64,000 bases of DNA, taken from SAR324 cluster bacterium SAR324-CTD7B. GTDB lineage: Bacteria > SAR324 > NAC60-12. The notes under the pieces are model-generated. The model worked only from the letters and a program-made list of their open reading frames with translations. It ran no database searches and was not told the origin of the DNA. The position numbers and the translations under genes are program-made. How positions within the stretch are numbered: position 1 is the first letter of the stretch; each line of letters begins with the position of its first letter. The DNA is taken from assembly GCA_002082305.1 (NCBI GenBank), contig LSNO01000081.1, positions 2,041-66,040 on the forward strand, read 5' to 3'. This document shows, piece after piece, positions 3,361 through 6,300 of this stretch.

Positions 3361-6300
3361 TTATGATTTTCTAGCTCCACTCATTGCAGAGAGTTGTTGG
3401 GTGATATAGCTTTGTTGGGATTTTAATCTTCCCATCGTGCTGTCCAGTTTTGCAAATTTTCTCTGCAGCCTTGTACGTTTAGTATCAGCCCGTTTGTTTA
3501 AACGGCTTATTTGTTCGTCAAAACTGGTCATTTGACCAGTTATATCATCTGTGGCCCGCTTGACATTGCCATCCAGAGGGTCATTCAATTTATCTAGTTT
3601 ATCGCCTAATTTTACAGCTACACCTTTAGAAATATTCACAGTAGCTTCTTGTTCATCAACCAAATCATCCTCACTAAGCGTCACGAACAATCTCAAACCG
3701 TCAGTATTGGAATCTTTCGCCCCTACGAGTAGTTGTCCTCTGCCGGTTGCCTCCACATTGCCAATTGATCCTGCAACATCCTCTCCAGGAGTGCTGATCC
3801 CGTCTGTTAGTCCCAAACTGCTGAGATCCTTGTCGGGTCCAGGTTCGACTTCAATTGTGCTGCTGTTGCCAAAAGTACCCGAAATTATCTTCAGCCTGCC
3901 TTCTTCTTCACGGACCTGTATTCTACGGCGTCCCAAAGCTTTGTCTTCCATCAAACGGTTCTGAATAGTTTTGGCCAGACTGCCTAGGGTATAGTTGTCT
4001 TTGCGCAATTCAATCGGATCAGAAACCCTGCCGTTATTTTTAATTATTAAAACGTTGTTCGTTTCATCAACTTTTATAATTCCTGGAAGTGGAGTCCCTA
4101 AATAAAATCCACGCTTTGCAGCATTAGAGACGTCCACCCTGTAACCGCTTGGATTAACCCTCGTTTTTTCAGTCATTCCCAAAAAACTTATGTCGGGATT
4201 GTCAGTTTTTCCATGAGTGCGAAATAAGTTGGCAACATTAGAAAATGCATCAACTATCTTTTCATTTAACTTTTTCTCTTCAATAGACATCATGCCTCTG
4301 TTATCGATCTTCAGACCAATAGAAAAAAGCATATTTGTCGATTGCGGCAAACCACTTACAGTTGCAATTGTTGTGGTTGCTATTTCGTTGACCATCTGCG
4401 ACAGATTCCTGTCACTTAATAGAGGTGCTGCAGTGTTGGTCGACTTATCAAACTTCGAAACCTCCTTGGCTGTAGCTTGAAATGTATTGTATGCATCTAC
4501 AAAATCGTGAATGCGTTCCTTGGCAACCTCTGTGTCACCCAATACTGACACAGTTACAGGCTTTTCACTGGATGAAAAAAACTCAAGATCAAGTCCTGGT
4601 ATCACATCATTTGCTATATTTTCCGAACGTCTTACCTCAAGGCCTTCTCCACTTCTGGTGGCTCCAAGGCGCAAGACTAAATCTTGAGCAAGTCTTACAG
4701 TTGAGGTCTCAGTTGAGACAGTAAAATAATCATCTGCATATAAATCACCTTTACCAAGGGCCAGTCGTAATCCCTCATCAAAAGATATTGGCGTACCGGG
4801 AGTATAGCCTTCGCCAATTTCTATCGAACCGGTACCGCCAAATGTGTCTTCCCATCTCATTTGCAGCCCACGTGTTATACCAACAGTACCCCTCTTCTCG
4901 ACTCTAAAAGTATATGTTTTTGCAATATCCGGCTCATAGTTTCCGGATACTTCTATGGGGGCATTGCTGAGTCCACCTGAGAATCCCCTTATTCCAGCAG
5001 AAACGTCGAGAGAACTTCTCTCTTTGTCATCATCAAGTCCTTCAAATTCTTCATAGGTCTTCCACTTTGCTTCGACCTCTACTTTATTTGACACGCCACG
5101 ATGTTCTTCATCGCTCCACCACATACTTTCTGCAGTTGGTGCAATTACATCCACATCCGTAGTATCACCGTCCCGTAAAACACTTGGATTCACTTCTACG
5201 AATAATCCATGTCCGATAGGCAGACGTTTTGGATCACGGCGGCCCTTTTTACTGAATTCTAAATCAAAGAGTTCTTCACCATCTTCTGAGTCAAAAGCCG
5301 TGGCGCTATCAAATGGACCCTCACCTTTCACTTCTCCTAAATAAGGATGCCCAATATTGACGGAGCCTTTTTCTCCAGTTTGGGAGAATTCGTAATGTAA
5401 TTTCAGTGGGCTGGGTCCGCCGACCTGTCCATTTCCCTCCACCCGAAAAACGATGGTATCATCTTCATTGCCGTCGTAAGTTCCGTTAACTTTTAGACCT
5501 CCTTCTGAAGCTTTACTGCTCCAGTCAGATGGTTGTGAAATTTGTGGTGCGCGGTCCGCTTCACTAAGCCACCACAACATGTCAGATTTTTCTGCAAAGA
5601 CATCAACAGTAAAGCTGTCACCACTTATAACTTCACCGTCACTTATCAACAATTTAAGGCCGTCCGTGATGTCGATGGGACTGCCGGGAACATAATTAAA
5701 CTTATTTATCTCAATTTCCCCTTCTCTGCCATTTTTATCCTTCCAGCCGATTAGTACTCCGGCTTCAGAAGGAATGACTCCGGAACGATCTACACGAAAC
5801 GTAAAGACGTTGTCTTCTTCTCCAGAATATGATCCACCCACTTCAACTATATTTGTTGAGCCTCCAAATCCTGCACCTGCAGCTATTTTTGCTACTTTAG
5901 CCTGCAGCCCCGTCCAGGTAGCAGTTGTATCAAATGTATTTTGATAACTTGGTCCGCTAACTTCACCGCCTTTAAGATTTACGTCTATGTTAATTCGTCC
6001 TTGCTCTCCCTTTACGTCGCTGGTTAAGAGCAGTCGAAAAGGGGTTTCACCGTGTGTTTTTGCGATATAGGCCTCCACACCAGAGTCAGAATTATTGATG
6101 GCCCGCTTCAAATCTGAGAGAGTGTCTTTGCCTTTAGCCAGATTGATTGTGACAGGCGTCTCGTCTTCATCGTCTCCAGTTTTAATCTGGATCTTTCCAG
6201 TACCAATCCTGACGTCTTGACTCTCAAAACCTTGTGACGTTATTTGATGCGACAAGGCTATAGACTCTACAATTATTGTATGCCTGCCAGGCACAGAATC

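Follow-up and report, generated by a model that had tools for sequence, protein, structure and literature searches.

What accounts for the length of the filament cap protein of an uncultured SAR324-cluster bacterium, and what might its additional part do? In the window, by which we mean the whole analyzed stretch of 64,000 nucleotides, a sequence-only reading had pointed to a giant FliD of 1093 amino acids, with three tandem repeats in an insert between the conserved N- and C-terminal parts, and had proposed that these repeats may be a novel binding module displayed on the cap.

The fliD gene and its domain layout

The open reading frame and its two neighbors are the following:

3361..6642, minus strand: fliD (HAP2, filament cap), 1093 aa from the first ATG
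2871..3338, minus strand: fliS (flagellin export chaperone), directly downstream of fliD; Pfam FliS, E 2e-38
6749..8509, minus strand: flagellin of 586 aa, directly upstream of fliD; Pfam Flagellin_N and Flagellin_C

The identification as FliD was borne out by Pfam, with FliD_N (PF02465) at aa 36-132 (E 6e-13, 49.6 bits against a cutoff of 24.8) and FliD_C (PF07195) at aa 667-812 (E 6e-35, 121 bits against a cutoff of 25.4). The NCBIfam FliD models match below their cutoffs, the best being PRK08032 with 163 bits of the 387 needed. The open reading frame falls under every NCBIfam equivalog threshold because of its inserts and its sequence divergence; this is a matter of automated naming that leaves its membership in the FliD family unaffected. 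FliD sequences in PDB match the protein, such that residues 31-210 correspond to residues 6-187 of Salmonella FliD and residues 631-806 to residues 198-376, and the full-length AF2 model matches the solved FliD structures 9gsx, 9gnz, 6sih and 5h5v with Foldseek E-values of 1e-16 to 1e-12. A TTG at codon 23 (window positions 6574-6576) is a possible true start, which would give a protein of 1071 aa, the length of most homologs.

A fliS homolog follows fliD in all SAR324 loci that reach far enough downstream. The flagellin, which in the window has an outer region of about 350 aa, is located upstream of fliD in the window and in 28 of the 45 species loci (L001-L021, L035, L036, L040, L041 and L043-L045), while most of the distant SAR324 clade has a flagellin only downstream of fliS. 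An assembly or gene-calling artefact was rejected, as hundreds of near-identical metagenomic copies together with the 45 species loci speak against it. We identify the open reading frame as canonical fliD, the gene for the filament cap, of a member of the SAR324 cluster.

Along the chain, the order is D0/D1, D2a, D3, the array (R1, WW-linker, R2, WW-linker, R3), D2b, D1, insert B, and D1/D0. The parts outside the array are:

5908..6534, minus strand: aa 37-245, N-terminal D0/D1 helix, first half of D2, and D3 (conserved FliD head)
4225..4704, minus strand: aa 647-806, second half of D2 and D1 helices (FliD_C), equivalent to Salmonella FliD 198-376
3625..4224, minus strand: insert B, aa 807-1006, a separate alpha/beta domain of about 200 aa inside D1, with a flagellin-IN-like motif
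3364..3624, minus strand: aa 1007-1093, last D1 helix and C-terminal D0 coiled-coil helix, equivalent to Salmonella FliD 385-465

The alignment to Salmonella FliD and the AF2 model both place the conserved terminal parts on either side of the central insert, as had been claimed. Residues 37-245 align to residues 6-187 of Salmonella FliD as well as to crystal chains of E. coli D2-D3, and are modeled as a helix at 40-90 followed by beta strands at 98-241 (pLDDT ~84-94); the C-terminal helix spans residues 1026-1089. The array is inserted between D3 and the return to D2, as the D3 strands stop at aa 241 and the D2b strands restart at aa 648 in the model.

Insert B, which adds to the size of the protein besides the repeats, is placed in the gap between residues 376 and 385 of Salmonella FliD and is modeled with a pLDDT above 90. 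The IN-like motif is located within it, at aa ~950-975, and thus outside the repeats. A PDB sequence search with insert B gave no match, C. jejuni FliD included. Two collinear similarities (E 9e-5 and 5e-4) relate it to the outer region of the adjacent flagellin.

Number, fold and conservation of the repeats

Residues 262-646 (window positions 4705-5859) consist of exactly three copies of one domain of about 88 aa, joined by two linkers:

5593..5859, minus strand: repeat R1, aa 262-350, predicted Ig-like beta-sandwich; domain HMM 87 bits, model positions 1-89
5509..5592, minus strand: linker 1, aa 351-378, with the conserved Trp-rich segment S..WW....ER...I.QPS.W
5134..5508, minus strand: repeat R2, aa 379-503 (125 aa), the same domain, interrupted
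5230..5331, minus strand: acidic insertion in R2, aa ~438-471, about 34 aa, VKGEGPFDSATAFDSEDGEELFDLEFSKKGRRDP
4969..5133, minus strand: linker 2, aa 504-558, with a conserved WW (508-509) at its start
4705..4968, minus strand: repeat R3, aa 559-646, predicted Ig-like beta-sandwich; domain HMM 96 bits, model positions 1-88

The sequence-only reading was right in counting three units and in their location (4720-5830, aa ~271-641), with repeat motifs at aa 270, 387 and 567 and Trp linkers at aa 355 and 506, and the true domain limits extend slightly beyond that region. Its unit size of ~100 aa does not hold, R2 being longer only through its insertion, and an acidic Trp linker follows R1 and R2 but not R3, which leads directly into the second half of D2.

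With BLAST, the repeats become visible only in segment-wise comparisons, since a BLAST of the whole protein against itself returns the self-match alone. With BLASTP, R1 and R3 share 39% identity over 67 aa (56 bits), while R1 and R2 align with 37 bits over 133 columns and R2 and R3 with 27 bits. Smith-Waterman scores exceed those of shuffled sequences with z = 26.1 (R1-R3), 7.2 (R1-R2) and 9.8 (R2-R3), and none of the 2000 shuffles reaches the observed score. A comparison of the domain-family profile with the FliD alignment by hhalign gives three full-length matches with E-values of 3.6e-26, 2e-24 and 5e-24. R2 is among these (E ~1e-24), and is matched by the HMM at aa 379-439 (model positions 5-56, 35 bits) and, weakly, at aa 446-501 (model positions 42-89). 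No fourth copy was detected by the profile-profile comparison, in which the next match has E = 0.23, and for the same reason we rejected the idea that FliD D2/D3 or insert B had been duplicated to give the repeat.

The single-domain AF2 model is an all-beta sandwich of nine strands (pLDDT 94.8), and the same strand order is seen in R1, R2 and R3 in the full-length model, where R3 has a pLDDT of ~90 and R2 contains an extra hairpin. The strands in the acidic insertion (446-450 and 457-462) have low to moderate pLDDT. The nearest folds are phage proteins (TM 0.72-0.74, rmsd 2.2-3.4 A), one of which is annotated with an SbsA Ig-like domain, and weak Pfam matches were obtained to FlgD_ig (4 of 53 copies, best E 0.0024), Big_9 (3 of 53) and Big_15 (2 of 53). 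The model thus predicts an Ig-like beta-sandwich, so that the fold can be named, contrary to the earlier impression. That impression was correct with regard to databases: none of the 53 copies passes any Pfam gathering threshold and R1 of the window has no Pfam match, NCBIfam gives no consistent match, nothing among the PDB sequences falls below E 0.09 with the domain profile, and Foldseek finds no PDB fold match to the repeat model at E <= 1e-3. Flagellin_IN (PF07196) was considered and rejected, as it matches neither the window protein (E <= 1) nor any of the 53 copies. We found nothing specific in the literature on giant FliD, SAR324 FliD or the repeat domain. The repeat behaves as a separate, uncurated domain family, mainly found in FliD and FlgK.

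The sequence-only reading had raised the question of whether the number of repeats varies among relatives. In the sampled SAR324 genomes it is fixed: exactly three copies are present in all 43 FliDs that reach R3, of 45 species loci gathered by one peptide pattern from a 10-sequence alignment, a pattern whose reach excludes FliDs without the motif and second fliD copies. The 67% GC locus (L034) contains three repeats in the correct frame. Copies at the same position are 0.48-0.53 identical between species, compared with 0.27-0.33 between copies within one protein, so the triplication is old. Regional identity is 0.47-0.53 in the repeats and 0.47-0.54 in the core, and median dN/dS is 0.07-0.08 in the repeats and 0.07 in the core, values that are approximate because most pairs have reached saturation in dS (mean > 1.2). 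The repeats are under purifying selection equal to that of the core.

Linker 1 is about as conserved as the core, with a mean pairwise identity of 0.48 across 41 species. Among 10 FliDs at 30-84% identity, W374 is invariant and W357, R364 and P371 almost so, and W358 is invariant in 12 close homologs. In linker 2, W509 is invariant and W508 nearly so in the 10 FliDs, whereas no other part of the protein is as poorly conserved as the remainder beyond the WW; the mean identity of this linker is 0.31, and aa 531-556 have a pLDDT below 50. The acidic insertion is lineage-restricted: in the 10-sequence alignment, the three sequences most similar to the window (57-100% identity) have it and the seven at 30-37% lack it, and of the 45 loci, L001-L019, L043 and L044 (47-95% identity) have a split R2, while all others (34-38%) have an uninterrupted one.

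These patterns bear on the idea that the repeats are a fast-evolving surface decoration, subject to antigenic or phage-evasion pressure like flagellin D2/D3 and without a specific function. Their surface-exposed position and the poor conservation of linker 2 would fit, as would the typical variability of the outer domains of axial proteins (PMC12445082). Yet the repeats and linker 1 are conserved like the core, the copy number does not vary among the FliDs that reach R3, and in the sampled genomes each copy is orthologous to those at the same position. We therefore consider this explanation largely refuted and highly improbable. The fixed triple copy under selection as strong as that on the core argues that the array does something.

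Occurrence of the domain and possible roles of the array

The domain is not a novelty confined to the cap. An exhaustive search identified it in 167 clusters (at 50% identity), which include FliDs of other phyla, about 49 FlgK proteins, one flagellin, and giant non-flagellar surface proteins. The FliDs of other phyla contain 1-5 copies, and it is only at this level, between phyla, that the number differs. Among the FlgK proteins is that of the cultured planctomycete Anaerohalosphaera lusitana. In the large surface proteins, the domain is found alongside CBM96, CARDB, fn3 and Ig-like domains, and several domain-bearing proteins also contain Flagellin_IN.

The Ig-like beta-sandwich is the commonest kind of spacer or adhesion domain on bacterial surfaces. 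In solved caps, the distal face is a star-shaped plate made up of D2-D3, at a distance from the cavity in which flagellin folds, and FliD heads tolerate extra domains. We favor the reading, with a probability of roughly 0.6, that the gene is a canonical fliD whose head carries an ancient and fixed Ig-like triplication, forming an ordered, exposed extension of the tip that is placed outside flagellin insertion and is likely an interaction surface. The repeats and the conserved Trp-rich linkers would extend the cap plate in an ordered manner, and would not be a floppy tether. This ordered superstructure is only a prediction, because R1, R2 and the linkers have moderate pLDDT values of 52-84 and the full-length model has a pTM of 0.49. 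The extension would probably not be part of the machinery for flagellin insertion, and its most likely role may be that of an exposed surface at the tip, through which the cap would interact with particles, cells or polymers, or its subunits with one another. In a pentamer of the SAR324 FliD, this would amount to 15 additional beta-sandwich domains exposed at the flagellar tip. It is tempting to see in the three domains and their Trp-rich linkers a defined crown of 15 domains on the pentameric cap, serving the widespread marine SAR324 clade as a dedicated structure for contact with or attachment to particles, polymers or partner cells, and in the domain family a general outer-domain cassette exchanged by FliD, FlgK and flagellin to form surface structures of this kind, but this is a speculative extension that we would not expect to hold.

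A more specific version of the interaction surface, and the idea of the sequence-only reading, is a glycan- or mucin-type adhesin, with every repeat serving as a module that binds carbohydrates or polymers and lets the flagellar tip attach to marine particles or hosts. In P. aeruginosa, adhesion involves the FliD head, and FliD of C. jejuni binds heparin (cited in PMC8533109 and PMC7316729). The co-occurrence with CBM96, CARDB, fn3 and Ig-like domains points in the same direction, and so does the conservation in R1 and R3 of a W-x-D...G-x-x-G motif and of aromatic residues across SAR324 genomes, including Trp and Tyr residues in the 10-sequence alignment. However, none of the CBM and lectin family models in Pfam and NCBIfam matches the domain, and the residues conserved in the family as a whole are structural glycines, which argues against a family-wide binding site. 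The domain is also present in FlgK at the hook-filament junction, which is no obvious site for adhesion. A specific adhesin of this type is an unlikely explanation.

Alternatively, the conservation of the repeats at the level of the core could reflect a role in assembly. The repeats and insert B may widen the cap to cover or chaperone a thick filament, made from a flagellin with a large outer domain. Consistent with such a match between cap and filament, the adjacent 586-aa flagellin has its outer region of ~350 aa, insert B resembles this region in sequence, and the conservation of the repeats equals that of the assembly core. Moreover, D4 of C. jejuni FliD touches the junction layer and alters the cap angles (PMC12221982). 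Nevertheless, the SAR324 clades at 34-38% identity keep three repeats, although their fliD-adjacent flagellins are mostly ~490-520 aa, D2/D3 are dispensable in Pseudomonas (PMC8533109), and the side of the plate that holds the repeats is that of D3, at a distance from the cavity. The filament of Salmonella, built from a 495-aa flagellin, is capped by a FliD of 467 aa. We regard filament matching as unlikely.

The uncultured clade SAR324/Candidatus Lambdaproteobacteria as a whole keeps a cap twice as large as usual, with its fixed triplet of Ig-like domains. The domain family represented by the repeat is missing from Pfam and NCBIfam and has no solved structure; its curation would help to annotate many flagellar genes better and provide a handle on the movement of outer domains between axial proteins. 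The understanding of flagellar capping itself is unchanged.

Comparison with known caps and surface domains

The SAR324 FliD shares with the canonical FliDs of Salmonella (9gnz), E. coli (5h5v) and P. aeruginosa (5fhy) the D0 coiled-coil termini, the D1 helix bundle, the D2-D3 head and the neighboring fliS gene, and its model matches them with Foldseek E-values of 1e-12 to 1e-15. It differs in being about 2.3 times longer, with ~400 aa after D3 and ~200 aa in D1. To our knowledge, the only enlarged FliD heads that have been studied structurally are those with D4-D5 in H. pylori and D4 in C. jejuni, and the repeats differ from both.

The C. jejuni FliD with D4 (6sih, 9gsx) is the best structural match of the full-length model (E 1e-16). 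Its globular D4 interrupts the helix bundle of D1 (PMC7316729), a position equivalent to that of insert B and not to that of the repeats, and there is nothing at its D3/D2 junction, the site of the array in SAR324. This D4 is far from the cap cavity and was judged not to be involved in flagellin incorporation, while D2-D3 make up the distal plane of the cap (PMC12221982).

The head of H. pylori FliD (6iwy) is likewise enlarged, by D4-D5, but SAR324 uses a different domain family, in a tandem triplet. No FliD chain, 6iwy included, is among the top 50 Foldseek PDB matches to the repeat model, the best of which is Legionella FlgL (7c7z, E 0.055, TM 0.47), and for the full-length model 6iwy is only a weak match (E 7e-6, TMq 0.09). 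The Pseudomonas FliD is functional without D2/D3 or with foreign and larger heads, and a chimera with the D2-D5 head of H. pylori has a motility comparable to that of the head-less, D1-only Pseudomonas FliD (PMC8533109). Since cap heads can be swapped in this manner, the SAR324 array is directly testable as a chimera in Pseudomonas or Salmonella.

Among surface domains, the bacterial Ig-like families (FlgD_ig PF13860, Big_9, Big_15, SbsA) are likewise all-beta sandwiches of ~90 aa that occur in tandem on extracellular proteins, whereas the SAR324 repeat stays outside these curated families by the Pfam and PDB measures given above. The closest parallel in principle is the Flagellin_IN cassette, which is also an outer-domain module common to different flagellar axial proteins, although the SAR324 repeats themselves are not Flagellin_IN.

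The fliD gene and its repeats

The repeats belong to an unusually large FliD protein encoded on the minus strand between fliS and a flagellin gene.

Features of the fliD region in the window
3361-6642, minus strand: fliD ORF, 1093 codons from the first ATG, containing the whole reported feature
2871-3338, minus strand: fliS, flanking fliD (Pfam, E 2e-38)
6749-8509, minus strand: flagellin of 586 aa, flanking fliD on the other side (Pfam)
5230-5331, minus strand: acidic hairpin FDSATAFDSEDGEELFDLEF..., FliD aa ~438-471, ~34 aa inserted in the second repeat
3625-4224, minus strand: insert B, FliD aa 807-1006, a ~200-aa insertion in the D1 region

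In Pfam, aa 36-132 match FliD_N (E 6e-13) and the match to FliD_C (E 6e-35) starts at aa 667; all NCBIfam FliD equivalog models (440-673 positions) match the protein as well, at scores well under their cutoffs. Near-identical proteins (81-97% identity, 1038-1093 aa) number in the hundreds in marine metagenomes, and those that are named are annotated as [quoted passage not shown]. Most homologs start at MAELNPNA, a position that corresponds to TTG at codon 23 in the window (start region 6574-6642, minus strand); the 22 codons between the first ATG and the TTG may be untranslated and the true product 1071 rather than 1093 aa. Whichever start holds, aa 1-36 are disordered in the AlphaFold prediction.

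Directly after the minus-strand flagellar genes, the plus strand (region 8500-11769) carries three ORFs that, from reading their translations, we take to be rnpA-like (9275-9637), yidD-like (9630-10007) and yidC-like (10000-11769), and the GC skew changes sign near positions 8000-9000. This may mark the vicinity of a replication origin, or be no more than a consequence of the change in coding strand.

The sequence-only reading had proposed three tandem repeats of ~100 aa in FliD, each followed by a tryptophan-containing linker. The repeat motifs were located at aa 270, 387 and 567 (R1-R3), and the three copies proved statistically solid. BLASTP aligned R1 and R3 with 39% identity over 67 aa (56 bits), R1 and R2 with 37 bits across 133 columns including one long gap, and R2 and R3 with 27 bits. 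None of 2000 shuffles reached the observed local-alignment scores (z = 26.1 for R1-R3, 7.2 for R1-R2 and 9.8 for R2-R3), so the internal similarity is significant. An iteratively built domain HMM delimited R1 as aa 262-350, R2 as aa 379-439 with a further weak match at 446-501, and R3 as aa 559-646. The unit is thus ~88 aa rather than ~100 aa, and R2 is longer because of the acidic insertion. The WW linkers (aa 355 and 506) follow R1 and R2 only, not R3. Profile-profile comparison over FliD recovered exactly three full-length copies (E 3.6e-26, 2e-24 and 5e-24) and no fourth; the next match had E = 0.23, which rules out the repeat as a relative of D2, D3 or insert B.

Fold and position of the array

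An AlphaFold model of the repeat from a diverse alignment of 53 copies shows nine beta strands (pLDDT 94.8, pTM 0.81). There was no Pfam match in the repeat region of the window protein, and the 53 copies gave only sporadic sub-threshold matches in Pfam, to FlgD_ig (4 of 53, best E 0.0024), Big_9 and Big_15, and nothing consistent in NCBIfam. The domain profile had no match below E 0.09 among PDB sequences. Foldseek found no PDB match at E <= 1e-3, the best being the outer domain of Legionella FlgL (7c7z, E 0.055, TM 0.47). The best matches among predicted viral structures reached TM 0.72-0.74 (E 0.002-0.013), and one of these carries an annotation for an SbsA Ig-like domain.

Three segments align with the Salmonella FliD: aa 31-210 (its residues 6-187), aa 631-806 (198-376) and aa 1007-1088 (385-465). 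In the full-length AlphaFold model (pLDDT 80.3, pTM 0.49), an N-terminal helix (aa 40-90) is followed by D2a/D3 strands to aa 241, a low-confidence stretch (aa 246-260) and three blocks sharing one nine-strand order, with an additional hairpin at 446-462 in R2. After the D2b strands, which restart at aa 648, come the D1 helices, then a confidently predicted alpha/beta domain (insert B, aa 809-1006, pLDDT > 90) and the C-terminal helix. The closest PDB matches to this model are the C. jejuni and Salmonella caps (E 1e-16 to 1e-14). These results give the domain order D0/D1-D2a-D3-(R1-R2-R3)-D2b-D1-(insert B)-D1/D0, with two separate insertions, not one.

Insert B contains a flagellin-IN-like motif (PGEDVAGSIGNVEATGRGQLL) similar to the outer region of the adjacent flagellin, with which it also has a second collinear segment in common (E 9e-5 and 5e-4 for the two similarities). 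No relative was found among PDB sequences. In position, it is equivalent to D4 of the C. jejuni FliD, an insertion within the D1 bundle (PMC7316729).

Conservation among SAR324 relatives

Scanning the GTDB species representatives yielded 45 fliD loci, all from MAGs or single-cell genomes, labeled SAR324, Candidatus Lambdaproteobacteria or generically (Deltaproteobacteria, Proteobacteria/Pseudomonadota, bacterium), with isolate names indicating marine and groundwater sources. The repeat number does not vary among these relatives: every FliD that reaches R3 (43 of the 45 loci) has exactly three copies. Identity is 0.48-0.53 between species at the same repeat position and 0.27-0.33 between positions within one protein, a difference in alignments that places the triplication before the divergence of the sampled lineages. 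The repeats are as conserved as the core, with mean pairwise identities of 0.51 (R1), 0.47-0.49 (R2) and 0.53 (R3) and 0.47-0.54 for core regions; only linker 2, between R2 and R3, falls below this level (0.31). Median dN/dS is 0.07-0.08 for the repeats and 0.07 for the core, with dS saturated. A hypervariable decoration is contradicted by the core-like identity, the positionally conserved copies and the low dN/dS, and is very improbable. The linker residues W357, W374, W508 and W509 are invariant or nearly so across 30-84% identity, and W358 is so among close homologs. The acidic hairpin was seen only in loci 47-95% identical to the window; it is absent at 34-38% identity, where R2 is uninterrupted, as in a groundwater Lambdaproteobacteria MAG (L034).

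Wherever a locus continues far enough past the end of fliD, a fliS homolog comes next. In the window and in 28 of the 45 loci, a flagellin gene precedes fliD; most members of the distant clade have flagellin only after fliS. The window's clade has one fliS and the ~586-aa flagellin upstream, while many SAR324 loci outside its immediate clade (within L012-L044) have two tandem fliS-like genes after fliD. One to three extra flagellin paralogs of ~490-520 aa occur downstream in most 34-38%-identity loci and in L018. Examples of fliS-like pairs or extra flagellins are L020 (9040-14075) and L036 (9126-14465).

Distribution and possible role of the domain

An exhaustive HMMER search with aa 250-665 against 1.84 billion cluster representatives gave 167 matches at E <= 1e-3. 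Among the best 150 of these, the domain HMM identified 230 copies in 149 proteins (1-9 per protein). The 150 were roughly sorted into about 52 FliD or FliD-like proteins, about 49 FlgK proteins, a single flagellin and about 34 others; 16 of these others are 1082-3480 aa long. The large ones scanned with Pfam have CARDB, fn3, Ig-like, CBM96, Peptidase_M23 or TSP3 domains. Named hosts include Thermodesulfobacteriota (FliD), Planctomycetota (FlgK and a five-copy FliD-like protein), the cultured planctomycete Anaerohalosphaera lusitana (FlgK) and Omnitrophota. In FliDs of other lineages, the domain begins at the same site, right after D3 (aa ~220-265), in 1, 2 or 5 copies. The repeat thus represents an uncurated Ig-like family that several flagellar axial proteins have in common. 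The suggestion of a novel cap-displayed module is partly right: the accessory head domains from an uncurated family stand, and the cap-specificity does not, as FlgK, flagellin and giant proteins also carry the domain.

A class of FliD-like proteins of 550-980 aa (P0135, P0166, P0197, P0213, P0244 and P0177, one of them named, from Planctomycetota) has 1-5 copies that begin directly after the N-terminal helix (aa ~110-135); at this site the domain may stand in for the usual D2-D3 head instead of extending it. The Omnitrophota protein (P0131, 2981 aa, from a Candidatus Omnitrophota MAG) is a giant hypothetical protein with nine tandem copies (aa 1581-2519) and no flagellar signature, so this domain also serves as a repeat unit in surface proteins outside the flagellum.

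The D2-D3 domains of solved caps make up a star-shaped plane on the distal side, each D3 resting on the D2 of its neighbor, and D0-D1 insert flagellin beneath it (PMC12221982). From its position at the D3/D2 junction, the SAR324 array should be an exposed addition to this plate, with 15 domains per pentamer, and would lie outside the flagellin-insertion machinery. Conservation at the level of the core, together with Trp-rich linkers that are invariant or nearly so, suggests either an ordered assembly whose protein contacts are conserved or a conserved ligand. We consider an ordered, exposed, accessory tip structure, mainly a putative interaction surface, the probable reading (about 0.6). That the cap is instead matched to a thick filament seems unlikely, and slightly less likely still is that the repeats are a putative specific glycan adhesin.

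The extra domain of the C. jejuni FliD was judged irrelevant to flagellin incorporation (PMC12221982), and the Pseudomonas FliD remains functional when D2/D3 are removed or exchanged for foreign and larger heads (PMC8533109). The SAR324 protein belongs to the known kind of FliD with accessory head domains, here built from an uncurated Ig-like family.
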